A DNA stretch of 64,000 nt from Rhodospirillaceae bacterium (GTDB taxonomy: Bacteria > Pseudomonadota > Alphaproteobacteria > Bin65): NCBI GenBank assembly GCA_028819475.1, contig JAPPLJ010000048.1:17905-81904 (forward strand). Reading direction: 5' to 3'. Made by a program: the position numbers and the translations under genes. This document shows, piece after piece, positions 17,287-34,151 of the stretch; the stretch's first letter is position 1; each line of letters opens with the position of its first letter. The notes below the pieces were generated by a model. That model had not been told where the DNA came from, searched no databases, and saw nothing but the letters and a program-made list of their open reading frames with translations.

Positions 17287-18822
17287 TCACGCGGGACGCG
17301 CGTGCGCCGGCTCCCTGACGGTATTCTCCCGGCCGACCGTCGCCAGCGACTCGCTCAGTTCGGCCAGCGCCAGCGTATCGCGGGCGCAGTAGGCGCGCAG
17401 GTCGGCGAATGTGCGCCGGCGCTCTTCCGGATCGTCGGCCGCCAGCGCCCGGACGTAACGCGCGGCCGCCATCTGCCCGTCGGCGATCGAAAGGTCGGCG
17501 TAGTCCATGCCGGGAACGAGCGCGGGCAGCACGCTCTTGATCGAGAAGGAACCGCGGAACGCGGGGTGGTAGATGCTGTCGCGCACCGGCGGCAACAGGT
17601 CGAACAGCCGGGCCCCGATGGCGCGAAGCGCCGCCGCCCGTTCCGGCAGTGCCGCCGCAAGGTCGCGCAGGATGCGGCCCTCATAGCCGGAGTAGGTGCA
17701 AATGCTGCCGCTCCGGCCCAGCGCCTCGATCAGCCGGTCGGCCAGCGCCGGGCGGGGGTCGTCAGCGCCCTCGTGCAGATAGTCGGCATGGTCCGGCGGC
17801 GCGCCCCGGCGTTCGGTATGCACCGAGAAGAGAAAGGGGATCGCATCGTAGGGGCGCGTGCCGGCAAAGCGCGGGACCGCCGGTGAGAATGTCTCGAAAT
17901 CCAGATAGCGGACCGGCTGCCTCCGCCGGGCCAGTATGCCCGCGATGTCGCCATGCAGCACCGGGCGGCCTTCGATGACCGCGCGCCGGACGATGCGCTG
18001 CAACGGCGTGAGCGGGAAGCCGTCGGGAATGTCGCGTATCTCCTGGATTCCGCCAGCGTCGAGCCGGCCGCGTTCCGCCTTCCCCAGCCGGGGCAGTTCG
18101 TCGATACCGTGGTTCGGCGGTACGTCGTTGCGCGTGCAATGGGCGTGATACGGGCAATGATAGGGGTCGAAGCAATGGTCGCCGGCCGCGATGTCCGGCG
18201 CGGCCGGCGCGGCGAGCATGGCCTGCATCCCGTCCACTTCGGCCTCGACGGCCGCGAGCAGCGCCTCCGCCCGGCCGGTCACCGGGTGCAGCCGGAACAG
18301 CGCGCCGGGGTCGAGCCGCCGGCCGTCGTAGACATAGTCCCGGTCGAGGGTGAGGACGCAGGCCTCGCGCACGTCGAGCCCGGCGCCGCGCAAAACCCAG
18401 AGCTGGACCGCGGCGTCGAGGACGAAAAGGTCCTTGAGCCGGGTCGTCGACTTGACCTCGGTCAGGCGCCAGCCGCCGGCGGGCAGGCGCTCGATAATGT
18501 CGGCGCGGACCAGCACCCCGCGATGCCGGCACGCCGCCTCGAACAGGGCCGGCGCGTTTCCCGCCTCGATAACCCGGCGGGTTTCCTCCAGCGCCTCCGG
18601 GATATGGCGGTGGTCGTGCGCTACAAGATGGCCGCCGGGGATGCGCGCGCACGCCAGTTCGCCGACTTCGTGGCCGGTGTCGAACACCGCCCGGAGCGCC
18701 TCGTCCGGCGCCGCCGCCAGGTCGCGTTCGTAGCAGTCGTACCAGAGCCGCAGATGGCACTGTGCCCCGGAAATGTAGCGGGATTTGGAGAGGGAGGATT
18801 CGCGCGTCACTCGGTTGCCCAT
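17287..18822 (-). CDS. DUF2779-type protein (N-terminal PD-(D/E)xK/Cas4-like nuclease region, C-terminal RNase H-like domain)
   Basis: LSKSRYISGAQCHLRLWY, RADII...LTEVKSTT, C..PYHCPYHAHC Cys cluster, YLDFET, FRGSFSIKSVLPAL, YCARDT. Confidence 0.82.
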   Translation of the reverse strand: MGNRVTRESSLSKSRYISGAQCHLRLWYDCYERDLAAAPDEALRAVFDTGHEVGELACARIPGGHLVAHDHRHIPEALEETRRVIEAGNAPALFEAACRHRGVLVRADIIERLPAGGWRLTEVKSTTRLKDLFVLDAAVQLWVLRGAGLDVREACVLTLDRDYVYDGRRLDPGALFRLHPVTGRAEALLAAVEAEVDGMQAMLAAPAAPDIAAGDHCFDPYHCPYHAHCTRNDVPPNHGIDELPRLGKAERGRLDAGGIQEIRDIPDGFPLTPLQRIVRRAVIEGRPVLHGDIAGILARRRQPVRYLDFETFSPAVPRFAGTRPYDAIPFLFSVHTERRGAPPDHADYLHEGADDPRPALADRLIEALGRSGSICTYSGYEGRILRDLAAALPERAAALRAIGARLFDLLPPVRDSIYHPAFRGSFSIKSVLPALVPGMDYADLSIADGQMAAARYVRALAADDPEERRRTFADLRAYCARDTLALAELSESLATVGRENTVREPAHARPA

Positions 18823-19565
18823 ATCTTCCGGGGACCTGTGTTTCCCGCCTGAGTTGTCCATTTTCTGAGATAATTTGCAAACAACGGACCGAAAGAACCG
18901 CGATTTTCGACGATGCTTGAAACTTTACAGAAATCCAAATTTGTGAGGTAACTTTCCGAGGGAGAGTCTCCTGTTGGGGTAATGTAGACGATTTCACTTG
19001 TCCATGGTCTATCTTTGACTATTACATCATACTTAAACACATTTTCCCATTTTTGTCCATTTGGTAATTTCGACTCACAAATCGCTCTCTCTAGTTCGCT
19101 TTCATTGCAAATTTTCACGATAGAGGCATTGGCAAGAAGAAAAAGAAGATGAGCATATTTTTTCTTGTATGTGGTTGCGAGGCATATCTCCCGCAATGCT
19201 TCCAACAGATAACAAGGCCCCACCATTTTTGCCCTGCGCAGATATTCGAGTTGTCCTTCGTCAAATGACCTGCTGTCCGTTTTTAATTCTACAAAATAAG
19301 CTACGTTAGAATCTTTGGAGAAAACTACATAATCTGTCTTAACAGACTGATTTTTTCCCTTTATGTGTTCGCCGCATAATGTACCCTTTCGTAGGGGGAA
19401 TTCGGGTATGATTGTACAGTCTTCTCTCCCGATTCCGAGGATATCGGGCAGAAACAGTCCGAAGAACGGCGCGAGGTTGGGCTCCAGCCGGTAGCCGGGA
19501 AGATGCCGCCAGCGATTCAGTTTGCTGAATACATCGGCGAAGTTCGGACGGTTTTGATCGGTCAT
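18807..19565 (-). CDS. AT-rich hypothetical protein with restriction-endonuclease-like PD-(D/E)xK motif
   Basis: 252 aa ORF: IIPEFPLR...KTDYVVFSKDSNVAYFVELKTDSRS...Q (D-x12-ExK-type). Core is much lower in GC than the flanks. Confidence 0.7.
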   Translation of the reverse strand: MTDQNRPNFADVFSKLNRWRHLPGYRLEPNLAPFFGLFLPDILGIGREDCTIIPEFPLRKGTLCGEHIKGKNQSVKTDYVVFSKDSNVAYFVELKTDSRSFDEGQLEYLRRAKMVGPCYLLEALREICLATTYKKKYAHLLFLLANASIVKICNESELERAICESKLPNGQKWENVFKYDVIVKDRPWTSEIVYITPTGDSPSESYLTNLDFCKVSSIVENRGSFGPLFANYLRKWTTQAGNTGPRKIWATE

Positions 19566-19782
19566 GCCATTTCCTTACGCGGGTCTGCGCGCAGCGCACA
19601 GACGTTCCCGTGCGCTGCGGATCGACACGCATTCTGGACTGCATCCGCCGGCCGGACAATGCGCTGCCGCTTTCCCAGTCTTCGGGTTTCCCCTGCGAAG
19701 CCCGGAAACTGCGAAAACGGGGTCGCCAGCCCGGTCCCTCCGCTGCCGCAGGGGAGTCCCGCGGCCAGAAGCCGGCGGCCTC

Positions 19783-21462
19783 CTACCTAATCGCAAACCC
19801 CTCATACCCCGCGGCGGCGATTTCGGCGCAGCGGGCGGCGTAGGCGGGGTAGCCGCCGATATAGGGCATGAAGACCCGCGGTTTGCCGGGGATGTTGGCG
19901 CCGACATACCAGGACGAGCAGGTCGAGCGCAGGGAGGCGTCGGCCAGCTCGTTGACATGCGCGACCCAGGCATCCTGGGCGGCGCGCTCGGCCTCGATGA
20001 CGCCGGCGCCGCGGCCGCGCAGGGCTTCGATGCAGTCCGACACCCATTCGACATGTTGCTCGATCGACGGCATCATGTTGGTCAGCACCGAGGGGCTGCC
20101 CGGCCCGGTGATGGTGAACAGGTTCGGGAAGCCGTTGACCGCCAGCCCGAGATAGCTGCGCGGCCCGGCCTCCCAGGCCTCGCGCAGGGCCAGGCCGCCG
20201 CGGCCGCGGATGTCGATGCGCTTGAGCGTGCCGGTCATGGCGTCGAAGCCGGTGGCGAAGACAATGGCGTCGGCCGCGATCTCCTCGCCGCCGGTCTCGC
20301 CGCCGCTTTCCGCATCCCCGATCGCCACGCCGGCTTCGACGATCGCCCGGATCGGCCGCTCGTTGATATCGATCAGGCGCACGTTGGGCCGGTTGTAGGT
20401 CTCGAAATAGCCGGTATCGACGCACAGCCGTTTGCAGCCGATCACGTTGGTCGGCATCAGCTTGCGCGCCGTCTCGGGGTCGTCGACAGTCTCGCGGATC
20501 TTGGCGCGCACGAAGTCGGCCGCGGTTTCGTTGGCCGCCGCGTCGTACAGCAGATCCTCGTAGCTCGCCATGAAGGTGAGCCCGCCGGTCTCCCAGCGCC
20601 GCTCGAATTCGGCGGTCCGCGCCTCCGGGCTGTCGGCCAGCGCCGACGGCCGGGGCAGGTCGACCAGGAAGCAGCCGAAGCGCGTCTTGGCCTCCTCGCG
20701 CAGCGCCCGGTAGTCGGACTTGACGGCGGCGACCTCCGCCGCGCCGAGCGGACGGTTCTGCGCCGGGACGGAATAGTTCGCCGTGCGCTGGAACACGGTG
20801 AGCTGCGCGGCCTGCTGCGCGATCGCCGGAATCGACTGGATGGCCGAGGAGCCGGTGCCGATCACGGCGACGCGCAGGCCGGTGAAGTCGACCTCTTCGT
20901 GCGGCCAGCGCCCGGTGTGGTAGGTCGCGCCGCGAAAGCTGTCGCGGCCCGGTATGTCCGGCAGGTTGGCGGTCGAGAGGCAGCCGGTCGCCATGATGCA
21001 GAAGCGCGCCGTCACCCACTCCGGCGCGCCGCCCGCCGGCTCCAGTCGGACCCGCCACAGCCCGGCGGCCTCGTCCCAGTGCGCCGCCGCGACGCGGGTG
21101 TCGAAGCGTATGTCCGGCCACAGGGCGAAGCGGTCGACGACATGGTTGGCGTAGCGCAGGATGTCCGGCTGGACGGCGTAGCGCTCGGTCCACCCCCACT
21201 CCTGCTGCAGCGCCTCGTCGAACTGGTAGGAGTAGGACATGCTCTCGACGTCGCAGCGCGCGCCGGGATAGCGGTTCCAGTACCAGGTGCCGCCGACCCC
21301 GCCGCCGGCCTCGTAGACCCGCGCCCGGAAGCCGGCGCCGCGCAGCCGGTGCAGCAGATACAGGCCGGCAAACCCGGCGCCGACGATCAACGTGTCGAGA
21401 TCGGCGGCATCGGCCTCGGGAGCGCCGGGATCGGGCAAGGCGGAAGGAGGAGCCTCGGTCAT
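19783..21462 (-). CDS. Baeyer-Villiger monooxygenase (cyclohexanone/phenylacetone monooxygenase family)
   Basis: GAGFAG, GGTWYWNRYPGARCD, fingerprint FRGATYHTGRWP, second Rossmann IGTGSS, ATGF. Confidence 0.95.
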   Translation of the reverse strand: MTEAPPSALPDPGAPEADAADLDTLIVGAGFAGLYLLHRLRGAGFRARVYEAGGGVGGTWYWNRYPGARCDVESMSYSYQFDEALQQEWGWTERYAVQPDILRYANHVVDRFALWPDIRFDTRVAAAHWDEAAGLWRVRLEPAGGAPEWVTARFCIMATGCLSTANLPDIPGRDSFRGATYHTGRWPHEEVDFTGLRVAVIGTGSSAIQSIPAIAQQAAQLTVFQRTANYSVPAQNRPLGAAEVAAVKSDYRALREEAKTRFGCFLVDLPRPSALADSPEARTAEFERRWETGGLTFMASYEDLLYDAAANETAADFVRAKIRETVDDPETARKLMPTNVIGCKRLCVDTGYFETYNRPNVRLIDINERPIRAIVEAGVAIGDAESGGETGGEEIAADAIVFATGFDAMTGTLKRIDIRGRGGLALREAWEAGPRSYLGLAVNGFPNLFTITGPGSPSVLTNMMPSIEQHVEWVSDCIEALRGRGAGVIEAERAAQDAWVAHVNELADASLRSTCSSWYVGANIPGKPRVFMPYIGGYPAYAARCAEIAAAGYEGFAIR

Positions 21463-21677
21463 GGCGCGGCAGTGTCACCGAAGCGGGCGCGGGGTCAAGC
21501 CCGCGGCGCGCAGGGCGGTGTTTCAGGCAATGTTTTCCGGATTGGTTCCGGGTTGCCGTCTCTGACGCCTGTCACGGACTCCTTTCCGGGCGGAGAGATC
21601 GCGGGGGAAGGTTTCAAAGCTAATTTTACGACTAACCGCAAAACGCTTCGTGGTCTGTTGAGTTCGCACTACCGCCT

Positions 21678-22316
21678 TTAGTCTTTTGCCAAGCGGCCCG
21701 AACGAGTCCCGCAGTAAACGAGGGCCTGAACGAATCCCGAGTCACCAATTTCGGCGCATCTCATGAAGTAGTAGCAGTAATCGTTGATATCGCAGTATTC
21801 GAGCCTCGCGATAAAGTAGAGAGACTTGTCTGCCGAGATGATTGTCTTGATCTGTTGCCGAGATAGAGGCGGTGCAACAAATCTTCTTCCGACCTCGGTG
21901 GTGGACACATCACCGAGAAAATGCCCTTCCCTGTTGTTCCAATTTACATCGATAGCGGAAATGTAGTCGCGCTGTTTAGGCTTGTCCGAGGTGACGTAAT
22001 TCTTGAGCACCACGCGCTGTGCGCTGGTGGTGCCCCCGATCTCAAGAGGGGCAACAATTCGAATACCGGCAGGATCACCTATCCGTTCAAGTTGTATCCG
22101 TAAGGAAAGGCGCGGCCTTTGCTGCTCATTTCTGTCTCTAATCGTAACCCAGCCTTGATACGTCTGTATGGCAGCGAAGACCAGCGCGAGACAACCTATA
22201 GCGACTAAAGCCCAATTTGGAATCGCTGAATGTTTTTGCAACCAGTTCTTCAAGCGATTCGATTTTCTTGGTCGTTCATTGTCCATAAGTGTCATAACGG
22301 ATATTGCAGTACTCAA
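21678..22316 (-). CDS. Orphan AT-richer protein with one N-terminal TM helix (start may be 22295 or 22286)
   Basis: 212 aa ORF in lower-GC DNA; WALVAIGCLALVFAAI TM followed by a beta-rich Cys-containing domain. No family recognised. Confidence 0.65.
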   Translation of the reverse strand: MSTAISVMTLMDNERPRKSNRLKNWLQKHSAIPNWALVAIGCLALVFAAIQTYQGWVTIRDRNEQQRPRLSLRIQLERIGDPAGIRIVAPLEIGGTTSAQRVVLKNYVTSDKPKQRDYISAIDVNWNNREGHFLGDVSTTEVGRRFVAPPLSRQQIKTIISADKSLYFIARLEYCDINDYCYYFMRCAEIGDSGFVQALVYCGTRSGRLAKD

Positions 22317-22330
22317 TTTGGAATTGTGGC

Positions 22331-22433
22331 CTAGAAATTATTTCTCATTTCAGACCCTCCTCTACAGACTGTCCGGCTCACCTTCGGAGGTTGCAGGAAA
22401 AGGGCGTCGGGCGGGCTTGTAGAGAGCCGCCCG
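22331..22433 (-). promoter_or_regulatory. Candidate structured leader: hairpin loop complementary to SD-proximal sequence, plus 5-codon uORF
   Basis: Stem 22408-22433 has a 7-nt loop (minus strand CUCUACA) complementary to UGUAGAG at 22360-22366, abutting GGAGG (22356-22360). ATG 22348 encodes MRNNF*. Confidence 0.45.
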
Positions 22434-22445
22434 TATCTTCCGGCG

Positions 22446-22814
22446 TCAGCCGACCCGTTTGGTCGAGACGAAGGCGCGCCATTCGCACAATTTGTCGCCG
22501 CGCATCTTCCAGTGCTCGCCGGCGATCTGGCGCGCCTTCGTGCCGTCGGGATTGTCCCAGCCCGCGGTCCATTCGACGGCGATCCAGTCGCCGCTCGCCG
22601 CGATCAGCGTCTTGTCGAGCTGCACGTTGCAGATCGACGGATCGTAAAAGCGCTCGTGGAAGGCGCGCACCGCGTCGGCGCCGCGCGCGACCTCGCGGCC
22701 GTTCCAGACGATCACCGCATCGTCGGTATACAGCGCCATCGTCGCCTCAATATCGCGCCGGCGGTACACCGCCTCGGCCTGGCGCACGATCTTTTCGGCT
22801 TCTGTCTGATTCAC
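22446..22814 (-). CDS. SnoaL-like / NTF2 family protein
   Basis: AVYRRRDIEATMALYTDDA...GADAVRAF...IAVEW...EHWKMRGDKL. GTG at 22814. Confidence 0.82.
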   Translation of the reverse strand: MNQTEAEKIVRQAEAVYRRRDIEATMALYTDDAVIVWNGREVARGADAVRAFHERFYDPSICNVQLDKTLIAASGDWIAVEWTAGWDNPDGTKARQIAGEHWKMRGDKLCEWRAFVSTKRVG

Positions 22815-22857
22815 CGTTCCCGTCTTTCCTGAATGGCGAGTCCCCGCCCGGCCGCAG

Positions 22858-23889
22858 CTACGCCGCGACATCCCAGGTTGCGCCGCGGTGCAGCAGGGCG
22901 TTCATGTCGCCCCGGGTCGGCGCCTTGTCGGCGATCGCGCGATTCTGCGAGCGGACGGCGCGCTCGTAGCTCTGCTCTGCCGGGCTGCAATAGAGCACGC
23001 CGATGGCGACCGGGAAGTCCGGCGGCTTGAGGCGGGCGAGCGCACCGCCGATCGTCCGGTTGGTCTCGTCGTGGACGATGATATCCTCCTCGCGCACGCC
23101 GTCGTCGCCCAGCGTCACGACCTCCAGTTCCAGCGTGTGGCGGTTCATGCGCAGGCCCTTTTCCCGGTCCTTGCCGAACAGCAGCGGCTTGCCGTGCTCG
23201 GCCTCGAGCTGCATGTCCGCCTTCACCTCCTTCTCGGTGAAATGCTCGAACACGCCGTCGTTGTAGACGATGCAGTTCTGGATGATCTCGACGAAGGAGC
23301 AGCCCTTGTGGGCGTGGGCTCGGGCCAGCAGGCCGGGCAGGTGGTCCTGCCGCCGGTCGATGCCGCGGGCCACGAAGCGGGCGTTGACGCCGAGCGCGAA
23401 GCTCAGCGCATCGACCGGCGAATCGATCGAGCCGTGGGGTGTCGACGGCGAGCGGGTGCCGAGCCGCGAGGTCGGCGAATACTGGCCCTTGGTCAGGCCG
23501 TAGATCTCGTTGTTGAACAGCAGGTAGCTGATATCGACGTTGCGGCGGATGGCGTGCAGCGTGTGGTTGCCGCCGATCGACAGCCCGTCGCCGTCGCCGC
23601 CGACGACCCAGACGTCGAGGTCCGGGTTGGCAAGCTTGATCCCGGTCGCGAAGCTGGGCGCCCTTCCGTGGATCGTGTGGAAGCCGTAGGTTTCCATGTA
23701 GTAGGGAAATCGCGCGGCGCAGCCGATGCCCGAGACGAACACGGTGTTCGCCGGATCGGCGCCGATATCGGCCATCGCCTTCTGCACCGCCTTCAGGATG
23801 GCGTAGTCGCCGCAGCCGGGGCACCAGCGCACCTCCTGGTCGGTGGCGTAGTCCTTGGGGGACAGGCTCGCGGGGGTCTGAATGTTCAT
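22858..23889 (-). CDS. korB: 2-oxoacid:ferredoxin oxidoreductase beta subunit
   Basis: WCPGCGD, SGIGC, HGRA, GGDGDGLSIGGNH (TPP-binding), NNEIYGLTKGQYSPT. Confidence 0.95.
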   Translation of the reverse strand: MNIQTPASLSPKDYATDQEVRWCPGCGDYAILKAVQKAMADIGADPANTVFVSGIGCAARFPYYMETYGFHTIHGRAPSFATGIKLANPDLDVWVVGGDGDGLSIGGNHTLHAIRRNVDISYLLFNNEIYGLTKGQYSPTSRLGTRSPSTPHGSIDSPVDALSFALGVNARFVARGIDRRQDHLPGLLARAHAHKGCSFVEIIQNCIVYNDGVFEHFTEKEVKADMQLEAEHGKPLLFGKDREKGLRMNRHTLELEVVTLGDDGVREEDIIVHDETNRTIGGALARLKPPDFPVAIGVLYCSPAEQSYERAVRSQNRAIADKAPTRGDMNALLHRGATWDVAA

Positions 23890-23908
23890 CGCTCGGTCTC
23901 CGCCGGCC

Positions 23909-25765
23909 CTAGAGCCAGGCTTTCAGCGCCTCTTCGATTTCGACGATGCGGAACGGCTTGCCGTTCACCTTGTTCAGCGGTTTGGCATCGACGAGATATT
24001 CGGCGCGCAGCACGGTCACCAACTGGCCGGTGTTCATCTCCGGCACGAGGATCGTCTCGTAGCTCTTCAGCAGGTCGCCCAGATTGGGCGGCATCGGCCA
24101 GATATGGCGGATGTGGATGTGGGACACGTCGTGGCCCCGGGCGCGCATGTTGGAGACGGCCCGGCCGATCGGCCCGTGGGTCGAACCCCACCCGACGACC
24201 GCGATCCTGCCGCCTTCCCGGCCCTGGTCGACCGCCTGGTCCGGAATGTCCCCGGCGATGCCGAGAATCTTGTTCCGGCGGTTGTCGGTCATCTTCTGGT
24301 GGTTGTCGGCATCGTAGGAGATGTCGCCGGTCAGATGATGCTTCTCGATGCCGCCGATCCGGTGCAGCAGGCCGGGCGTGCCGGGCTTGACCCAGTCGCG
24401 GGCCAGGGTTTCCGGATCGCGCGCATAGACCTGGTAGCCCTCCGGATCGGTGCGGAAGGTCACCGGAAACGGTTCATGGTCGTCGAAATCCGGGATCAGC
24501 CAGGGTTCGGCGGCGTTGGCGATATAGCCGTCGGTCAGGAACATCACCGGCGTCATGTACTTGACCGCGAGGCGGCAGGCCTCGATGGCGGCGAAATAGG
24601 CATCGCCCGGCGAATGGCAGGCGACCACGGCGAGCGGCGCATCCGCGTTGCGGCCGTAGACCGCCTGATAGAGGTCCGACTGCTCGGTCTTGGTCGGCAG
24701 GCCGGTCGAGGGGCCGCCGCGCTGGGAATTGACGATGATCAGCGGCAGTTCGGTGGCGATCGCCAGGCCGACGGCTTCGGTCTTGAGCGCGATGCCGGGG
24801 CCCGAGCTGGAGGTGACGCCGAGCGCACCGGCATAGGAGCCGCCGATCGCCGCGCACACCGCCGCGATCTCGTCCTCGGCCTGGAAGGTCGTGACGCCGT
24901 AGTCCTTGAGCGGCGCCAGCAGATGCAGCAGCGCCGAGGCCGGCGTGATCGGATAGCCGGTGAACAGCAGCGGCAGGCCGGCCAGCCGGGCACCGGCGAC
25001 CAGGCCCATGGCCACGCCCTCCGCGCCGGTCAGCGCCCGGTAGGTGCCCGGCGCGATATCGGCCGGCGGCACCACGAAACTGCCGAATTCGCGCGCCATG
25101 TCGGCGGTTTCGCCGAAGGCGTGTCCGGCATTGAGCGCCGCGATGTTCGCGCCGGCAATGTCCGGCTTGCGGGCGAACTTCTGCTTCAGCCACTCTTCGT
25201 TAATCGATCGGTCGCGGCCGAACAGCCAGTCGACCAGCCCGAGCGCCCACATGTTCTTGCAGCGCTGCGCATCCTTGTTGCCCAGGCCGAACGGCTTGAC
25301 CGCCTCGACCGTCATGCGGGTCATGTCGACTTCGAGCTTGCGGTAGCCTTCGAGGGAGCCGTCCTCCAGCGGATTTTCCCCAAAGCCGGCCTTGCTCAGG
25401 TTGCGCGCCGTGAAGGCGCCGGTATCGACGATGACCAGCCCGCCGTTGCGCAGGTCGCCCAGGTTGGTCTTGAGCGCCGCCGGATTCATGGCGACCAGAA
25501 CGTCGACCGCGTCGCCCGAGGTCCGGATCGTGCGCGACCCGAAATGGATCTGGAAGGCCGAGACGCCGAAGGTCGTCCCGGCGGGGGCGCGGATCTCGGC
25601 CGGAAAGTCCGGGAAGGTTGCGAGATCGTTGCGGGCCATCGCGGTGGCCTGCGTGAACTGGGTGCCGGTGAGCTGCATGCCGTCGCCCGAATCGCCGGCG
25701 AAACGGACGACCGCGCTTTCGAGTTCGTTACCGGCTTCGTCCGATACGACCGAGCCGCCATCCAT
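23909..25765 (-). CDS. korA: 2-oxoacid:acceptor oxidoreductase alpha subunit (gamma-alpha fusion)
   Basis: RFAGDSGDGMQLTG, YPITPAS, QAEDEIAA, TSSSGPG, QRGGPSTGLPTKTEQSDL. Confidence 0.95.
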   Translation of the reverse strand: MDGGSVVSDEAGNELESAVVRFAGDSGDGMQLTGTQFTQATAMARNDLATFPDFPAEIRAPAGTTFGVSAFQIHFGSRTIRTSGDAVDVLVAMNPAALKTNLGDLRNGGLVIVDTGAFTARNLSKAGFGENPLEDGSLEGYRKLEVDMTRMTVEAVKPFGLGNKDAQRCKNMWALGLVDWLFGRDRSINEEWLKQKFARKPDIAGANIAALNAGHAFGETADMAREFGSFVVPPADIAPGTYRALTGAEGVAMGLVAGARLAGLPLLFTGYPITPASALLHLLAPLKDYGVTTFQAEDEIAAVCAAIGGSYAGALGVTSSSGPGIALKTEAVGLAIATELPLIIVNSQRGGPSTGLPTKTEQSDLYQAVYGRNADAPLAVVACHSPGDAYFAAIEACRLAVKYMTPVMFLTDGYIANAAEPWLIPDFDDHEPFPVTFRTDPEGYQVYARDPETLARDWVKPGTPGLLHRIGGIEKHHLTGDISYDADNHQKMTDNRRNKILGIAGDIPDQAVDQGREGGRIAVVGWGSTHGPIGRAVSNMRARGHDVSHIHIRHIWPMPPNLGDLLKSYETILVPEMNTGQLVTVLRAEYLVDAKPLNKVNGKPFRIVEIEEALKAWL

Positions 25766-25904
25766 CGGCTCTCTCCTTCTGTCCTGCGGGTCCGCCGGCG
25801 GTTTCCGGCCTGCCCCGAACGTCTTCGCGCCTGCCGCTTATAGCGGGGCGCAGCCGATCGTTAAAGTCCCGAACAATCAGTCATCCGAATATTTCATACC
25901 TAAA

Positions 25905-27239
25905 TCAATTTTCCGCGCCGGCCGCCGGTCGATCCAGCACGGCCAGCATTTCCGGTACCCGGCCGAACTTGCGGCGCGGTGCCGGCGGGGTTGCGGCGGC
26001 TTCCTCGGCGGCCTCGATCCGCTTCCAGTCGTCGAATGGCACATAGCGGATATTGTGGGCTTGCAGATGCTTTTCCAGCGCCTGGCGGCCGGGCTTGCCG
26101 GACCCGTTGCCGCAATCGCCGGCGATCTGCTCCGCCGCGGTCGCGCCGTCCGGCTTGTTGGAGCCGATCACGCCGGACGGGCCGCGCTTGATCCAGCCGA
26201 CCGCATAGAGGCCGGGCTCGATCCGCCCATCGCTGTTGCGGCTCCGGCCGCCGTCGAAGGGCACGCCGTCGACCGGCTCGGAAAAGTAGCCGATCGCCGG
26301 GATCACCAGCCCGCAGGCGATGTCGAAGGTCTCGCCGGTGCCGACCGCCCTTCCGTCCTCGATCCGCGTCCGCTCCATCCGGATGCCCTCGACCCGCGCG
26401 CCGCCGAGGATCTCGACCGGGCTGGCGCAGAAGCGGAAATGCACCCGCTTGGCCCGGCCGCCGGGCTCCATGCCCGAGAAGTCGCGCAGCGTCGCCAGGT
26501 TGCGCCGGATCATGCGCAGGTCGCGGTCGCTCATCGTCGCGGCGGTTTCCTCCGGCACGTCCTCCGGCACCTCGGCCGGGTCGAGGACCGGCGCGCTGTC
26601 CTCCAGCTGGCCCATCTCGCGCAGCTCGACATTGCTGAACTTGGCGTGGTGGGCGGCGCGCCGGCCGAACATGTAGACGTCGCGGATCGGCGCGGCATGG
26701 ATCGCCGCGGCGGCATAGTCGGTGAGGTCGGTCGCCGCCATTTCATCCGGCGTCTTGGTCAGCACCCGGGCGACGTCGACGGCGACATTGCCGACTCCGA
26801 TCACGGCGACCGTCCCGGTATCGAGCGGCGGGTCGAGATCGCGGAAATCCGGATGGCCGTTGTACCAGCCGACGAAGGCGGCGACGCCGAGCACGCCGGC
26901 CTTGTCGTCGCCGGGGATGCCGAGGCTGCGGTCGATGGCGGCGCCGGTCGCCAGGACAACGGCGTCGTACATGCCGCGCAGCGCATCGAGGCCGATATCT
27001 GTGCCGAGCGTGACGTTGCCGTAATAGCGGACCCGCGGGTCGCCCGCCGTCTTCTCGTAGGACCGCGCGACGTTCTTGGTCTTGGCATGGTCCGGCGCCA
27101 CGCCGCCACGGATCAGCCCGTAGGGCGTCGGCAGCTTCTCGATGAAGTCGATCTCGACCGCTTCCACCGAGCGCAGCAGGGAATCGGCCGTGTAAAATCC
27201 GCTCGGCCCGGAGCCGACGATCGCGACGCGGAGCGTCAT
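25905..27239 (-). CDS. FprA/adrenodoxin-reductase-like NADPH:ferredoxin (flavodoxin) oxidoreductase
   Basis: AIVGSGPSGFY, PYGLIRGGVAPDH, IGVGNVAVDVAR, GRR, AIGY, GWIKRGPSGVIGSNK. ATG at 27239. Confidence 0.92.
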   Translation of the reverse strand: MTLRVAIVGSGPSGFYTADSLLRSVEAVEIDFIEKLPTPYGLIRGGVAPDHAKTKNVARSYEKTAGDPRVRYYGNVTLGTDIGLDALRGMYDAVVLATGAAIDRSLGIPGDDKAGVLGVAAFVGWYNGHPDFRDLDPPLDTGTVAVIGVGNVAVDVARVLTKTPDEMAATDLTDYAAAAIHAAPIRDVYMFGRRAAHHAKFSNVELREMGQLEDSAPVLDPAEVPEDVPEETAATMSDRDLRMIRRNLATLRDFSGMEPGGRAKRVHFRFCASPVEILGGARVEGIRMERTRIEDGRAVGTGETFDIACGLVIPAIGYFSEPVDGVPFDGGRSRNSDGRIEPGLYAVGWIKRGPSGVIGSNKPDGATAAEQIAGDCGNGSGKPGRQALEKHLQAHNIRYVPFDDWKRIEAAEEAAATPPAPRRKFGRVPEMLAVLDRPAAGAEN

Positions 27240-27409
27240 CCTGTCAATTCGCCGTTGAAATCGTTCTCGTGCCGGATGGCGCGCGGCTGGCAAGCTAGTG
27301 CGTGCGCGCCTGTCTTGTGAAGCCCCTTTGTTGGCCCCTTCGCCGGCCCCGCCGTTTGCGAGGCGGCCGGGACGGGCAAACGACCGGGCGTCCGGTCCGG
27401 CCGGTCGCG

Positions 27410-27709
27410 TCAGTTCAGCCGGAGCACGCCGTCGACGAAGCGGAATTCCGCCGGCCGGACCAGCTGCCGGGACGCGACGCGCACGACATGCAGCGCGCCC
27501 TCCAGATTCTCCTCCCAGAAGCACAGGAACCGGCCCAGCTTCGGGAAGCGCGGCGCGATGTCCAGGCCCTGCCAGACATAGGTCTGCAACAGGGCGGGAT
27601 GATCGGGCAGGCGGTAGATGATCTCGGCGGTGGTCAGCCGGTGCCCCTGCAACTGTCGCAGCAGGCCCGGCGCGGCCGGCGGGCTGCGCGATCCCAGTTC
27701 GGTGCCCAT
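27410..27709 (-). CDS. usg: Usg family protein
   Basis: GHRLTTAEIIYRLPDHPALLQTYVWQ..D.APRFP.L..FL.FWE.NLEG.LH.V. Confidence 0.88.
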   Translation of the reverse strand: MGTELGSRSPPAAPGLLRQLQGHRLTTAEIIYRLPDHPALLQTYVWQGLDIAPRFPKLGRFLCFWEENLEGALHVVRVASRQLVRPAEFRFVDGVLRLN

Positions 27710-27781
27710 GCCGTCCTCCCCGCTTGCCGTATCAGGGACGCAAGCTTAACAGACGGACATTAATTCAACAATATCAATGAT

Positions 27782-27808
27782 TTAGCAGCGTTCCGATGGG
27801 AGTGCTGA
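27782..27808. promoter_or_regulatory. CIRCE-like element (HrcA operator) upstream of usg
   Basis: TTAGCAGCG-N9-GAGTGCTGA versus consensus TTAGCACTC-N9-GAGTGCTAA; exact 9-nt spacer, 4 mismatches. Confidence 0.65.
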
Positions 27809-27973
27809 TAGTGCGCGAGAGCGCTCCTCCCGAAGCAAAGATTAAGGACACTATGTTAGGATGATGCCCAATCGTTCAGTTTGCAGGTAGGCTCACGATA
27901 CTCGGTTGCAGTAGCAGATCGTCATCCAATGGGCGTTGAGCCGGTTATCTGCAACGGGCCGTCAGATCAAGTA

Positions 27974-28432
27974 TCAAGCGTTAGGTAGCGCATTACCGTC
28001 CTTCAAATAAAATTCTATATCTTCAATCGTTAATTGTCGGTGTTCAATTCCATCACACATCTCGAATTCATCGTCGCTCACTTCTTTGAACATTCGACTA
28101 GTTTGTCCTTTTGTCATGTCGTAGACGTTTATGTGGCATTCGTCGCCCGTTGATGATGGCTCACGGGTGAATCTTGCGTTTTCCGGAAATTCGGATGCTG
28201 GTATGCGCCAGAAAATGACGGGATGTCCGGAGATGGCCGGGTAGTAATAACGACCAATGTGTTCGCACTCGGATCCGCTTCGCTCTCTGGCACACCGTGT
28301 GTCGATGACCGATACGGCGCTCGTAGCAGAAGACCTCTGGAATACCATACTCTTAAATCTTTGCTCTCGTTGGCTAAAATGTTTTGGGTGAATAAGTCTG
28401 ATAACTTCATCGACTTCCACGACATCCTCCAA
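27974..28432 (-). CDS. AT-rich hypothetical protein, putative ART/RES-like fold toxin (start TTG 28432 or GTG 28420)
   Basis: 152 aa: VIRLIHP...SMVF...AVSVI...PSSTGDECHINV (R...SV...H pattern). GGAGG lies 5 nt before GTG 28420. Confidence 0.6.
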   Translation of the reverse strand: MEDVVEVDEVIRLIHPKHFSQREQRFKSMVFQRSSATSAVSVIDTRCARERSGSECEHIGRYYYPAISGHPVIFWRIPASEFPENARFTREPSSTGDECHINVYDMTKGQTSRMFKEVSDDEFEMCDGIEHRQLTIEDIEFYLKDGNALPNA

Positions 28433-28794
28433 AGATAATCTGTTAGTTCGTCAAACAGGATACCGTCTTTTTCGAATCTAGTATCTTGCTCAACTCTATG
28501 CTCAATTTCCAAATTACCATCGGCACTGCAAAATATCTCGAGAATGTCATCGGCATAGTATCCAGATACCAAAATACCTCCGCTAACATCAGGAAAAACT
28601 TCAATTTCATCCGCGTTATTTCTGACAAGTAGTGAGCTGATGGAGCGTGCCAAATTTACTGCAGTTTGCGTTGCGGCGCGTCCATCGCCATAGTGCCAAC
28701 CATCAGCCAAATCCAAAAATGACAAAATCCGACGCGAAATAAAGTCGTCTGTAGGGTCGGAGAAGTTCACGACTCGGTACAGTGAGGGCAACAA
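28129..28794 (-). CDS. AT-rich hypothetical protein with L..L.DGW.YG and P...GG motifs and a long S/T/P-rich tail overlapping the next gene
   Basis: 221 aa: RILSFLDLADGWHYGDG...EVFPDVSGGILVS...LEIFCSADGNLEI. Last 101 codons overlap ORF 27974..28432. Confidence 0.6.
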   Translation of the reverse strand: MLPSLYRVVNFSDPTDDFISRRILSFLDLADGWHYGDGRAATQTAVNLARSISSLLVRNNADEIEVFPDVSGGILVSGYYADDILEIFCSADGNLEIEHRVEQDTRFEKDGILFDELTDYLWRMSWKSMKLSDLFTQNILANESKDLRVWYSRGLLLRAPYRSSTHGVPESEADPSANTLVVITTRPSPDIPSFSGAYQHPNFRKTQDSPVSHHQRATNAT

Positions 28795-28796
28795 CT

Positions 28797-29153
28797 CTAT
28801 TCCTTCTCTCTTAAAGATTGATTTTGAATTTCTAAAAGTGCGGGCCGAATATCATGCATCGTCATAATATTATGGTCAGTCGCTTTTTCAAAATCGGCAA
28901 CAGCTCGACTCAATTCAGCTGCAAATGTCTTTGCTGTTGTGAACGACATATGGAGTGCGCACAACCGTTCACCATTTCGCATAAGAAGCGCGGTCATGTC
29001 TGATAGAGAAAGCCCAATTTCAACACCATTGAAATAGATTGCTTGAAGCGCAGTATCTGTTGCGGTGGAAGGTGGCGTAGAGTACGCTGAGCCGGTTTCA
29101 ACAGTTTCGTCTAATCCCGTTTCACTCATGCGTAGGGCTCTTTCGATATTCAA
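28797..29153 (-). CDS. DUF3467-like small protein
   Basis: IYFNGVEIGLSLSDMTALL...LHMSFTTAKTFAAELSRAVADFE resembles the DUF3467 pattern (Y.N...+...D...MS...AK.+...L). Ends 2 nt before the next start. Confidence 0.55.
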   Translation of the reverse strand: MNIERALRMSETGLDETVETGSAYSTPPSTATDTALQAIYFNGVEIGLSLSDMTALLMRNGERLCALHMSFTTAKTFAAELSRAVADFEKATDHNIMTMHDIRPALLEIQNQSLREKE

Positions 29154-29206
29154 ATGACGCGAATTGCAACTCAGTCGCGCTGAGATGCTGGCGGCGAATT
29201 GGTGTC

Positions 29207-29238
29207 AGTCATCATCGCCTTCCAAGGCGATGATGACT
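29207..29238. repeat. Perfect 15-bp inverted repeat (terminator or operator)
   Basis: AGTCATCATCGCCTT-CC-AAGGCGATGATGACT, between the boxB stop and the AT-rich cassette. Confidence 0.8.
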
Positions 29239-29348
29239 TGCTAGAGGAGAGAAGGGCAGCCAAAACCAGTGTGTCAAGGTAAACATATCATGAATCTTTC
29301 TGCATTTCTACCCCAATTTAGCGAATAAAGAGTCCTGCCGGCCGCCGG

Positions 29349-30776
29349 CTAAAGCCTCACATACTCATAGTCGACCGGGTTGTTGTTGATGCCGCGGTCG
29401 GGCGGGGCAATCCAGCCGGCCATCCGGCCCGGCGCGGTCACCTGCTTCATCAGGCTCTTGATGTGGGTCCGGTCGGCCTCCGACGGGATCCAGTCGTTTA
29501 TCCGGCTTTCGTAGGCCTCTTTCGAGACCGGCGTGCCGTCGGGCGCGAAATGGAAGCCGGCGAAGGGGCCGACCGTTCGGCGGAAGCGGTCCGACGGCAG
29601 GCTGAATTGGAGATCGACCCCGGCCTTCCGGATCATCCGGTTCCAGCGCGTGATGCCGATATCGCAGTCATTGGAATAGCCCTTGCGGGCGACCAGGTTC
29701 ATGGCGTTGCGCGTCGGGATTTCGATTTCCCGCACGCCGGCGCCGTCCTCGGTCGGCTCCTCGATGCGGTAGAGCGTGTCGGCTTCCAGATGGTCCTCGA
29801 ACCGGTCCTCGTCCGGCCGGCCCTTGAGGCCGTTGGCGAAATAGGCCGCGGCGTTGGTCGAGCGGTCGGCGCCGAACAGGTCGAGGGAGGAGGAGTACCA
29901 GTAGTTGATGTATTTCTGGACCAGGCCGAGATCGATCGCGCCGTGGTCGCGGATGCGCTGCGGGTCGTCGGTGTTCAACTCCTGCATGACCTCCAGCGCC
30001 CGCCGGATGACCCGGCCGAGGCCGGTCTCGCCGACGAACATGTGGTGGGCTTCCTCGGTCAGCATGAAGCGGCAGGTGCGCGACAGCGGATCGAAGGCGC
30101 TCTCGGCCAGCATCTTGAGCTGGAACTTGCCGTCCCGGTCGGTGAAGTAGGTGAAGCTGAAGAACGACATCCAGTCGTCGATCGGCTCGTTGAAGGTCGT
30201 CAGGATGCGCGGGTTGTTGACGTCGCCGGAATGGCGCTCCAGCAGGTCTTCGGCCTCCTCGCGTCCGTCGCGGCCGAAATGGGCGTGCAGCAGGTAAACC
30301 ATGGCCCAGAGGTGCCGGCCTTCCTCGACGTTGACCTGGAACAGGTTGCGCATGTCGTAGAGCGACGGGCAGGTGTAGGCGAGCATGCGCTGCTGTTCGA
30401 CTGAAGCAGGCTCGGTATCGCCCTGGGTGACGATCAGGCGGCGCAGATCGGAGCGGAACTCGCCCGGCACCTGCTGCCACACCGGCTGGCCGAAACTGTC
30501 GCCGAAGCCGATGGTGCGGTCCTCCGTCTTGTCGGCCAGGAAGATGCCCCAGCGGTAGTCCGGCATCTTGACGTGGCCGTAGGTCGCCCAGCCCTTGGCG
30601 TCGACCGAGGTCGCCGTGCGCAGGTAGACGTCCCGGGCCTGGAAATCGCCGTCCGGGCCCATCTCGCCCCACCAGTTCAGGAAGGCAGGCTGCCAGCGCT
30701 CCAGCGCGCGCTGGAGCTGGCGGTCGGCGCTCAGGTCGACGTTGTTGGGAATCTTCTCGGCGTAGTTGATCGACAT
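29349..30776 (-). CDS. boxB: Benzoyl-CoA 2,3-epoxidase subunit B
   Basis: INYAEKIPNNV, LRRLIVTQGDTEPASVEQQ, VNVEEGRHLWAM and MLTEEAHHM (di-iron EExH motifs). Confidence 0.97.
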   Translation of the reverse strand: MSINYAEKIPNNVDLSADRQLQRALERWQPAFLNWWGEMGPDGDFQARDVYLRTATSVDAKGWATYGHVKMPDYRWGIFLADKTEDRTIGFGDSFGQPVWQQVPGEFRSDLRRLIVTQGDTEPASVEQQRMLAYTCPSLYDMRNLFQVNVEEGRHLWAMVYLLHAHFGRDGREEAEDLLERHSGDVNNPRILTTFNEPIDDWMSFFSFTYFTDRDGKFQLKMLAESAFDPLSRTCRFMLTEEAHHMFVGETGLGRVIRRALEVMQELNTDDPQRIRDHGAIDLGLVQKYINYWYSSSLDLFGADRSTNAAAYFANGLKGRPDEDRFEDHLEADTLYRIEEPTEDGAGVREIEIPTRNAMNLVARKGYSNDCDIGITRWNRMIRKAGVDLQFSLPSDRFRRTVGPFAGFHFAPDGTPVSKEAYESRINDWIPSEADRTHIKSLMKQVTAPGRMAGWIAPPDRGINNNPVDYEYVRL

Positions 30777-30816
30777 GAACGGGATCCTCGGGCTGGGTGT
30801 TCCTGATCGGGCGGCG

Positions 30817-32472
<1,656 letters not shown>

Positions 32473-32524
32473 GGTCGCTCCCCGGCACAGCCGTTCCGCA
32501 CGCGGCGGGTTGTTCGGTCCGATC

Positions 32525-32540
32525 TATGCAATATAATGCA
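32525..32540. promoter_or_regulatory. TGCA-N6-TGCA operator upstream of boxC (BoxR/BzdR-type)
   Basis: TATGCAATATAATGCA; the first 15 nt recur exactly at 33522-33536. Confidence 0.7.
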
Positions 32541-32563
32541 TAATATTCTCGATGCAAGCAATA

Positions 32564-33487
32564 TTATTCGATGTTTCGTCGCGCATCGTTCAGCGCCAGG
32601 CCAAGGGCGTTCAACGCCGCTTCCGCCGAACGGTGCGAGGTGTCGAGCGTGACATCCGCCCGCGCGTAGAGGGCGTGCCGCGTCTCGAGGATGCGCTCCA
32701 GATCGGCCATCGCCTCGCCGCTGTTCTCCATCGGGCGGGTGTCGCCCTGTTCGCGCACCCGGCGCATATGGTCCTCCGGCGTCGCCTGCAGCCAGACGGT
32801 GAAACATTCCTCGAGCAGCCGCTCGTAGGTTTCCGGCTCCGAAACGATGCTGCCGCCGGTCGCGATCACGCATTCGGCATGCGCCGCCAGCGCATCTTCG
32901 AGCGCCCGGCGCTCGTAGCGGCGATAGGCGGCCTGGCCGGACAGGTCGAATATCTGGTCGACCGGCATGCCGGCTGTTCGCTCAACCTCGCGCGCCATTT
33001 CGATAAAGGGCACGCCCTGGCGCTGCGCCAGCGCCGCGCCGAGCGTCGATTTGCCGGCGCCGCGCAGGCCGGTCAGCGCGATCCGGTCCATCCGGTCCGC
33101 CCGCTTGCCAAGGCCGAGCGCATCGGTCAGCAGGCGGTTGGCGTGCGCCAGGTCATCGGGTTGCAGGCGTTCCAGCTTGCGAATGAGCAACGTCAGGTCG
33201 ACCGGCCGTTCGGCGCCCTCGCGCACCAGGTCGGCCAGCGGCACACTCATCGCGCCGGCGACGTTGCGCAGCAGGGCGATCGAAATATTGCCCTTGCCGG
33301 CCTCGAGCTGGGCCAGATAGCGTTCCGACACGCCCGAGGCGCGGGACAGGATCCGGCGCGACATGCCGCGGCGCGCGCGGGCCGCCCGGACGCGCTCGCC
33401 CAGCTGCGTCAGGAAAACGTCCGGCGTCGTGCGGTCCTGCGCTTCCGGGTCGGGCCGGGCGTCGGAGGATTGAGCGGAAATATCCAT
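32564..33487 (-). CDS. boxR: BoxR/BzdR family regulator (XRE HTH plus shikimate-kinase-like domain)
   Basis: LGERVRAARARRGMSRRIL...SERYLAQLEAGKGNISI, then IALTGLRGAGKSTLG and IATGGSIV. ATG at 33487. Confidence 0.92.
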   Translation of the reverse strand: MDISAQSSDARPDPEAQDRTTPDVFLTQLGERVRAARARRGMSRRILSRASGVSERYLAQLEAGKGNISIALLRNVAGAMSVPLADLVREGAERPVDLTLLIRKLERLQPDDLAHANRLLTDALGLGKRADRMDRIALTGLRGAGKSTLGAALAQRQGVPFIEMAREVERTAGMPVDQIFDLSGQAAYRRYERRALEDALAAHAECVIATGGSIVSEPETYERLLEECFTVWLQATPEDHMRRVREQGDTRPMENSGEAMADLERILETRHALYARADVTLDTSHRSAEAALNALGLALNDARRNIE

Positions 33488-33521
33488 GATACGGAACCGG
33501 TATCGGAGTCTGGCCAGAATA

Positions 33522-33536
33522 TATGCAATATAATGC
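33522..33536. promoter_or_regulatory. Second copy of the boxC operator in the boxR/flavodoxin divergent region
   Basis: TATGCAATATAATGC, identical to 32525-32539. Confidence 0.7.
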
Positions 33537-33680
33537 TTGAAATCAAGATGTATCGGTTCTATGTTGCGCATCGTTCGCCGCCCGGCTGCACACCGGCGGG
33601 ATCGGCCAGGACAGCGGCCAGGACAGCGCAGGCCCGCCCGCCGGAGGCCGGCACATCGAAGACATGTTGGAGCAACGGTC

Positions 33681-34151
33681 GTGGAACTGAAAATTCTCGT
33701 CGGTACGATGACCGGCACCGCGGAAATGGTGGCGGAGGAGATGGGCGATGCGCTCGCCGAACTCGGCCATGAGGTCGAGGTCGAGGCGATGGACGATCTC
33801 GACATCTCGGTGTTCGACGGCGGCGGCGATTTCCTGATCGTGTCCTCGACCTACGGCCAGGGCGACGTGCCGGACAACGCCATGGCGCTTTACGAGGGGC
33901 TGGTCCAGGACAAGCCGGACCTGAGCGCCGTGCGCTACGGCGTCTTCTCGCTCGGCGACATGACCTATTCGGACACGTTCAATTTCGGCGGCAAGCGGTT
34001 CGACAAGGCGCTCGAAGAGTGCGGCGCCGCGCGGATCGGCACGATCTTCACCCATGACGCCAGTTCCGGCACGATCCCCGAAGACGACGGCGTCGAATGG
34101 GTCAAGGAGTGGATCGGAAATTTTAGCGAAGCCCGCGCTCTCGCCGCCTGA
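33681..34151 (+). CDS. Short-chain flavodoxin (MioC/YqcA-like)
   Basis: GTMTGTAEMVA phosphate loop, SSTYGQGDVPDNA, FSLGDMTY..TFNFGG. GTG at 33681. Confidence 0.92.
   Translation: MELKILVGTMTGTAEMVAEEMGDALAELGHEVEVEAMDDLDISVFDGGGDFLIVSSTYGQGDVPDNAMALYEGLVQDKPDLSAVRYGVFSLGDMTYSDTFNFGGKRFDKALEECGAARIGTIFTHDASSGTIPEDDGVEWVKEWIGNFSEARALAA

Follow-up and report, generated by a model that had tools for sequence, protein, structure and literature searches.

A flavodoxin as candidate electron donor for benzoyl-CoA epoxidase in box clusters without BoxA

In Aromatoleum (Azoarcus) evansii and in Burkholderiales, the box genes for benzoyl-coenzyme A (benzoyl-CoA) degradation are arranged as boxR-boxCBA with a divergent boxD-bclA. 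BoxA, whose gene normally adjoins boxB, is a reductase with two [4Fe-4S] clusters and an FNR-like module for flavin adenine dinucleotide (FAD) and NADPH. Here, we describe a box cluster in a 64,000-nucleotide stretch of DNA (the window) from a sponge-associated bacterium of the Rhodospirillaceae, in which the genes are ordered boxR-boxC-boxB on the minus strand. The cluster has BoxB, BoxC, and a BoxR-type regulator in common with the canonical clusters, and TGCA-repeat operators and a divergent-operon layout are also found in it. In contrast to the canonical clusters, the genome has no BoxA, a flavodoxin gene (fld) heads the divergent side, and neither boxD nor bclA lies near the box genes. 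The window BoxB also differs from canonical BoxB in belonging to a separate clade with 16 signature substitutions. From these comparisons, we consider it rather probable that the flavodoxin is the physiological electron donor of BoxB here.

The closest functional precedent may be the P450cin chain, in which electrons pass from NADPH to cindoxin reductase, then to cindoxin, and then to P450cin (PMC9687028). The chain that we propose would be built from three parts in the same way. Among solved structures, cindoxin (4OXX) ranks third as a relative of the window flavodoxin, at 78 bits, and several lineages encode a reductase of the adrenodoxin reductase (AdR) family next to boxB. The comparison does not imply that the oxygenases are homologous: the P450cin oxygenase is a haem P450, whereas BoxB is of the ferritin-like diiron type and its substrate is a CoA thioester. 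The phenylacetyl-CoA 1,2-epoxidase PaaABC(D)E likewise uses a diiron center to epoxidize an aromatic CoA thioester, and its PaaA is structurally homologous to BoxB (PMC4498308). Paa uses PaaE, which is FNR-like with a [2Fe-2S] cluster, together with structural subunits, whereas BoxB is a single subunit, and no PaaE-like or BoxA-like partner is encoded in the window box cluster. In class Ib ribonucleotide reductase, a small flavodoxin-like protein with flavin mononucleotide (FMN), NrdI, serves the ferritin-like two-metal protein NrdF. NrdI is of a different flavodoxin subfamily, and it aids metallocofactor assembly rather than supplying electrons at each turnover.

The box locus and the absence of BoxA

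The locus lies at positions 22858 to 34151 of the window and contains the following features.

33681-34151, plus strand: fld, short-chain MioC/YqcA-like flavodoxin of 156 amino acids (aa), GTG start, divergent from boxR
33488-33680: fld-boxR intergenic region with an operator-like repeat, divergent promoter-like sites, and a 12-nt tandem duplication
32564-33487, minus strand: boxR, regulator of the BoxR/BzdR type, XRE helix-turn-helix (HTH) plus shikimate-kinase-like, 307 aa
32522-32546: further copy of the operator-like repeat, between boxR and boxC
30817-32472, minus strand: boxC, 2,3-epoxybenzoyl-CoA dihydrolase
29349-30776, minus strand: boxB, diiron benzoyl-CoA 2,3-epoxidase of the flavodoxin-linked ("type II") clade
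27809-29336: low-G+C insert in the boxB-usg gap, with orphan open reading frames (ORFs), all on the minus strand
27413-27709, minus strand: usg-like gene (PF06233, 124 bits), first in the usg-fprA-korAB block
25905-27239, minus strand: fprA, AdR-family NADPH:ferredoxin/flavodoxin reductase
23909-25765, minus strand: korA, 2-oxoacid:acceptor oxidoreductase subunit
22858-23889, minus strand: korB, probable other subunit of this two-subunit 2-oxoacid:acceptor oxidoreductase

The reading frames of boxR, boxC, and boxB are all intact, and their coordinates were verified; the start codon of boxR was taken from the sequence. BoxB matched TIGR03225 over positions 1 to 471 of 471 (757.8 bits; cut-off, 499.1) and aligned end to end with A. 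evansii BoxB (3PER; 647 bits), and it keeps the diiron motifs NVEEGRHLW and LTEEAHH. It also gave a weak PaaA_PaaC match. BoxC, whose gene is spaced 40 bp from boxB, scored 885.6 bits with TIGR03222 (cut-off, 712.3), and BoxR, with HTH_3 and SKI domains, scored 396.6 bits with NF006015 (PRK08154; cut-off, 204). Compared with congeners, the ratio of nonsynonymous to synonymous substitution rates (dN/dS) was 0.07 to 0.16 for fld, fprA, boxB, boxC, and korAB and 0.07 to 0.12 for fld alone. The box-cluster genes of the window are kept by purifying selection. A first-pass annotation of this DNA had called boxR-boxC-boxB intact and had placed an FprA-like reductase and korAB downstream of boxB in the same orientation; the family-model scores and low dN/dS bear out the former, and the coordinates bear out the latter.

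The flavodoxin matched PF00258 at 96.5 bits (gathering score, 25) and is the sole strong match to this family in the genome. It scored below the NCBIfam equivalog cut-offs for PRK08105 (116 versus 160 bits) and MioC (112 versus 158 bits). Judged by these models, the fld product is a flavodoxin that is a member of neither equivalog. Its closest solved relatives are YqcA (2M6R), MioC (2HNA), and the cindoxin noted above, and the database names for this protein are only "flavodoxin domain-containing protein" or "MioC protein."

We searched for BoxA across the whole 4.48-Mb assembly, which is 96.4% complete. The best score with the BoxA model TIGR03224 was 23.6 bits against a cut-off of 459.2, and the weak matches to this model spanned only the ferredoxin-like N terminus. 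Seven genuine BoxA proteins from other genomes gave no tblastn match in the assembly at an E value of ≤1e-4. BoxA was also not found in the twelve closest genomes, including three complete chromosomes and one single-contig congener. Because BoxA is missing from complete chromosomes of this group as well, its absence here is no assembly gap. The first-pass annotation had seen no boxA in the window and had suggested a search of the genome and its relatives; its observation stands and extends to the whole genome, and canonical boxA is likewise missing from those twelve relatives.

We found the repeat ATMTATGCAATATAATGC in both the boxR-boxC gap (32522-32546) and the fld-boxR gap (33519-33543), the second of which agrees with the earlier description of a flavodoxin divergent from boxR and sharing the operator-repeat region. 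The repeat is 17 to 25 nt long and contains TGCA-N6-TGC(A/T), and its copy at 32522-32546 holds the palindrome ATGCA-N6-TGCAT. The BoxR/BzdR sites in the literature consist of TGCA repeats that form part of longer palindromes (PMC6449761). Divergent sigma-70-like promoter matches, at 33537-33565 on the plus strand and 33546-33518 on the minus strand, overlap the repeat at 33519-33543. Of the 76 loci compared, 33 carry this motif between fld and boxR, taking in almost every proteobacterial locus and no acidobacterial one, and the fld-boxR gaps held 35 motif sites against 2.9 expected. In the Acidobacteriota, the TGCA-N6-TGCA form was not found in fld-boxR gaps, and variant forms were not searched for. 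The operator comparison would fit membership of fld in the BoxR regulon. In addition, the 12-nt sequence CGGCCAGGACAG stands twice in exact tandem in the 5' leader of fld (33603-33626).

A BoxB clade linked to the flavodoxin

In a tree of 148 BoxB sequences, the window BoxB was nested in a clade of 96 (stem length, 0.33; Shimodaira-Hasegawa [SH]-like support, 100), where its nearest row, L021, is 99% identical to it. An IQ-TREE analysis of 93 rows upheld the clade with an SH-like approximate likelihood-ratio test (SH-aLRT) value of 100. The clade consists of sequences from Alphaproteobacteria, Burkholderiales/Gammaproteobacteria, and Acidobacteriota. A. evansii BoxB fell outside it, among BoxA-linked sequences. 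Identity to the window BoxB was at most 63.3% outside the clade and at least 66.7% inside it, and the 16 signature positions accompany this gap; examples, numbered approximately as in A. evansii BoxB, are H291W, L353R, H392S, and A394R. We found fld in the locus for 78 of the 96 members; for 10 the contig was too short to judge, 5 had no fld nearby, and 3 were double-BoxB clusters with BoxA.

We defined a "type II" box cluster as one with a BoxB in the 96-member clade, with fld divergent from boxR, and with BoxA only where there is a second BoxB. All three features are found in the window cluster. True BoxA was present in 7 of the 50 genomes examined from the fld-type set. In four of these, BoxA was on another contig beside a second BoxB only 55 to 58% identical to that of the window, and the other three (L024, L033, and L038) had a boxB1-boxA-boxB2 arrangement. 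Thus, BoxA adjoined a BoxB of the 96-member clade only where a second, canonical BoxB was also present. The full order in these three loci is boxC-boxB1-boxA-boxB2 (about 7000-11419 in L024), where boxB1 is canonical and boxB2 belongs to the flavodoxin-linked type; in L024, a flavodoxin is divergent from boxR as well.

A scan of species genomes with the window BoxB gave 80 loci. Most of the genomes compared in this work are metagenome assembled. By tblastn and ORF clustering, 67 of the 80 loci had the arrangement of fld divergent from boxR-boxC-boxB; they span sponge-associated and other Alphaproteobacteria, small-genome Burkholderiales, one gammaproteobacterium, and many Acidobacteriaceae. 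The architecture was maintained in at least 12 genomes related to that of the window. In a count of 87 loci, fld was divergent from boxR in 80, and boxD or bclA directly followed fld in 45. In the Acidobacteriota and Burkholderiales, fld heads a divergent operon that continues with boxD or bclA, a lactonase-like hydrolase, and a thioesterase; the genes after fld were identified as boxD with NF008868 (730 bits) and as bclA with TIGR02262 (815 bits).

One locus, L137 (G308:C1:1248071-1249951), has the order boxC-boxB-fld-boxR. Its flavodoxin, 35% identical to that of the window, starts 31 bp after boxB and fills the exact slot that boxA holds in the nearest relatives. In the canonical annotated cluster of Mycetohabitans rhizoxinica, boxCBA is accompanied by a DUF4863 gene at the flavodoxin's place. 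A search of a plasmid collection gave only canonical boxCBA clusters (Mycetohabitans) and unannotated actinomycete matches.

We then considered a sample of 401 evenly drawn Alphaproteobacteria, in which BoxB occurred in 80 genomes at 83 loci. BoxA was present in only 14 of these 80 genomes. BoxA was adjacent at 14 of the loci, the flavodoxin at 22, both at none, and neither at 47. Thus, an adjacent flavodoxin was found at 0 of 14 BoxA-adjacent loci and at 22 of 69 others (Fisher P = 0.016, uncorrected for phylogeny). The first-pass annotation had called for a test of the co-occurrence of this flavodoxin with boxA-less clusters. The distance from the flavodoxin to boxB is typically 2.7 to 3.7 kb, the span of boxR plus boxC. 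A flavodoxin at ≥50% identity was present in 32 of 80 BoxB-positive genomes versus 2 of 80 BoxB-negative genomes (P = 2e-9, uncorrected for phylogeny), and among genomes of ≥3 Mb, the counts were 30 of 65 versus 1 of 22. Two architectures are seen. One is the co-directional bclA-lactonase-(boxD)-boxC-boxB-boxA-boxR, with no flavodoxin in 12 of 12 loci. The other has lactonase-bclA/boxD-fld divergent from boxR-boxC-boxB and is without BoxA.

Several observations weigh against the flavodoxin as the donor of BoxB. At the 47 loci of 83 with neither BoxA nor flavodoxin nearby, BoxB evidently is able to use other donors, and about two dozen of these genomes are wholly without the flavodoxin. The flavodoxin is evidently not the sole way of doing without BoxA, as far as gene content can tell. 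The 80 loci of the scan had been picked by likeness to the window BoxB. In the window's own clade, fld is solitary, with neither bclA nor boxD behind it, and a BoxD orthologue was not found in the genome, where the best match has 30% identity. As the genome's only flavodoxin, the fld product could be a general carrier. The window FprA belongs to a housekeeping clade, and its closeness to boxB is not kept even within the genus, as described below.

These points bear on an alternative in which BoxB is fed by general carriers, such as a housekeeping ferredoxin or another reductase, and the flavodoxin is general, redundant, or concerned with maintenance or repair of the diiron site. We inspected 20 of the neither-partner loci (L097-L116) and found no other conserved redox gene; they hold only DUF4863, GNAT acetyltransferase, CoA-transferase, and transporter genes. 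The 47 loci with neither partner strengthen the general-carrier alternative, and it would fit a genome with one strong flavodoxin. It would also fit the report that minor amounts of BoxA suffice for BoxB and that the interaction of the two proteins is transient (PMC4498308). In contrast, the flavodoxin subfamily is nearly absent from the BoxB-negative Alphaproteobacteria and from most BoxA-type genomes, fld is embedded in box operons in three lineages, and it excludes an adjacent BoxA and once occupies the BoxA slot exactly. We regard supply by general carriers as unlikely overall and favor the flavodoxin as the donor. The proposal of the first-pass annotation that a flavodoxin could replace BoxA is thus supported by the BoxB clade, by synteny, by the phyletic link, and by the operator comparison.

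The usg-fprA-korAB block and the low-G+C insert

FprA aligned over its full length with solved members of its family, namely, Mycobacterium tuberculosis FprA (1LQT; 317 bits, residues 5 to 433) and bovine AdR (1CJC; 301 bits). KorA matched TIGR03710 (611.7 bits; cut-off, 482.75), and its best solved relative is 6N2N/6N2O (245 bits). KorB scored 261 bits with TIGR02177, marginally below the cut-off of 261.9, and the KorAB motifs CPGCGD and GDGD were seen in the translation. The KorA match, like those of FprA, is full length, and the fprA-korAB block abuts the box genes here and stands alone in other Alphaproteobacteria.

FprA-like genes were present in 49 of 79 BoxB-bearing Alphaproteobacteria, mostly distant from boxB. 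In the single-contig congener, usg-fprA-korA-korB lies 160 kb from the box cluster, and in eight other families, fprA adjoins korAB with no box gene nearby. The usg gene is conserved upstream of fprA in relatives. A usg-fprA-korA-korB or fprA-korAB block was observed in many alphaproteobacterial families (L157, L159-L161, L163-L166, and L172). The conservation of this block suggests coupling between a 2-oxoglutarate:acceptor oxidoreductase and an NADPH:ferredoxin/flavodoxin reductase.

The FprA tree split into two clades with SH-like support of 100. The window FprA belongs to the Kor-linked alphaproteobacterial clade and not to the box-dedicated AdR-like clade. Genes of the latter clade were seen nowhere but immediately after a boxB of the flavodoxin-linked type, and their hosts were 26 Acidobacteriota and members of three alphaproteobacterial families. 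AdR-like genes directly follow boxB in L025-L083 (Acidobacteriaceae), L151, L152, and L169, and in Acidobacteriota, a protein of about 190 aa that looks membrane bound and has no family match is encoded after the AdR-like gene. We rejected the idea that the box-adjacent FprA-like genes are a single orthologous group, as the tree gives two clades. We likewise rejected FprA and KorAB as box-specific partners by position, as the block stands apart from box genes elsewhere and FprA is in the Kor-linked clade. Judged by gene order and the tree, a housekeeping usg-fprA-korAB block has come to adjoin the box cluster in this lineage. The first-pass annotation had proposed that the flavodoxin is charged by the neighboring FprA or KorAB; gene order gives this no support, the block being conserved separately.

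Aside from position, FprA is the genome's only AdR-type enzyme, and the genome holds only three FNR-type modules, one of them beside a PaaA-like gene. Because there is a single AdR-type enzyme, three FNR-type modules, and one strong flavodoxin, FprA is the likeliest flavodoxin reductase. As an NADPH:flavodoxin reductase, it is a reasonable candidate on biochemical grounds only, and we put the reduction of the box flavodoxin by FprA at a little short of an even chance. The general scheme of an NADPH-dependent FAD reductase acting with a flavodoxin is supported by the separate box-dedicated reductase clade found elsewhere.

KorAB-family enzymes reduce ferredoxin or flavodoxin. The flavodoxin might therefore be charged mainly by KorAB, with electrons passing from 2-oxoglutarate through KorAB and flavodoxin to BoxB and with FprA balancing the pool against NADPH. 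In 12 congeners, korAB lies three genes downstream of boxB, and no other strong flavodoxin is encoded, both of which would suit such a route. In contrast, the fprA-korAB block occurs without box genes in nine other genomes, including the congener just described, and no KorAB was found near the box genes in Burkholderiales or Acidobacteriota. In addition, a 1.5-kb foreign insert and usg separate the korAB block from boxB. We consider charging mainly by KorAB improbable and retain FprA as the candidate reductase.

The insert (27809-29336) lies between boxB and usg and has about 45% G+C, compared with 68% around it. At its place, the closest relatives, L005 and L021, have only 90 to 266 bp, and the insert is absent from all relatives. 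Because the aligned closest relatives have only this short spacer, the low-G+C stretch is a strain-specific insertion, and in this strain, it parts the usg-fprA-korAB block from boxB again. Its minus-strand ORFs are at 28797-29153 (118 aa), 28129-28794 (221 aa), and 27974-28432 (152 aa). These ORFs matched nothing in Pfam, NCBIfam, or PHROGs and gave very weak matches at best with PADLOC; a search of 5.8 billion proteins turned up just three distant homologues of the 221-aa ORF. The 221- and 152-aa ORFs overlap in different frames, which may reflect a frameshift, and a perfect hairpin lies at about 29211-29241, at the boxB-side end of the insert. A degraded boxA within the stretch was considered and rejected: there was no tblastn signal, the relatives have only the short spacer there, and the ORFs are orphans. 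The low-G+C insert is not part of the box system.

An orphan insert directly after boxB, together with the lack of boxA, of a BoxD orthologue, and of bclA in the window, could indicate that the cluster is a decaying or silent remnant that needs no electron donor. We consider this very improbable. The frames are intact, and because dN/dS against congeners is low, the cluster is not decaying; the architecture, as noted, is retained in at least 12 related genomes, and the insert lies between genes and interrupts none. Furthermore, two genes of the benzoate-CoA ligase family are encoded elsewhere in the genome (608 and 502 bits; cut-off, 375). The ligase genes, at C9:320213-321793 and C12:13389-14888, and a gene for a lactonase-like hydrolase, at C25:24845-25591, are all away from the box cluster, and the C12 ligase gene is near PaaA-like and PaaE-like genes. 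On the other side of the block, the region at 17287-22871 is unrelated to benzoate and encodes a DUF2779 protein, a flavin-binding (Baeyer-Villiger-type) monooxygenase (19783-21462), and a SnoaL-like protein (22446-22871).

Proposed electron chain and its meaning

According to the reading that we favor, electrons would pass from NADPH to FprA (FAD), then to the flavodoxin (FMN), and then to the diiron center of BoxB. The two electrons that BoxB takes up in each turnover would come from the fld product, an FMN protein, and not from BoxA. Benzoyl-CoA would then be epoxidized by BoxB, followed by ring opening by BoxC. BoxR probably represses the fld promoter and the boxR/boxCB promoters through common TGCA-N6-TGCA operators, and benzoyl-CoA is the proposed inducer that would release it. 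In this scheme, we infer that the flavodoxin passes electrons to BoxB, which enzyme reduces the flavodoxin, and that BoxR regulates the genes. More tentatively, the BoxB of the 96-member clade as a whole may be a flavodoxin-dependent, BoxA-free diiron epoxidase, which, taken with the numerous BoxB loci lacking both partners, would make the textbook BoxAB the minority form.

The box pathway serves as a genomic marker of low-oxygen aromatic degradation. Full-text searching of the literature found nothing that links a flavodoxin to BoxB or to the box pathway. In a comparative study of betaproteobacterial BoxR regulons, boxCBA is listed and a flavodoxin is not (PMC6449761), and one survey scores clusters without boxA as incomplete (PMC10803450). 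The distribution of the genes suggests that box clusters currently called incomplete probably do work. If the flavodoxin or other donors replace BoxA, then most alphaproteobacterial and all acidobacterial box clusters examined would be functional. Pathway prediction that depends on boxA would then miss part of the aerobic benzoyl-CoA degradation of oceans, sponges, and acid soils, and the estimated set of organisms that degrade benzoate-type compounds in seawater, sponge holobionts, and peat soils would shift. No other aromatic-ring diiron oxygenase is known to us to have been shown to draw its electrons from an FMN protein, and BoxB would be the first such case. For biocatalysis, the flavodoxin would be of interest as a simple, iron-sulfur-free redox partner for an enzyme that epoxidizes aromatic rings. 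The 16 clade-specific BoxB residues would offer a concrete case of a diiron oxygenase switching its electron donor.

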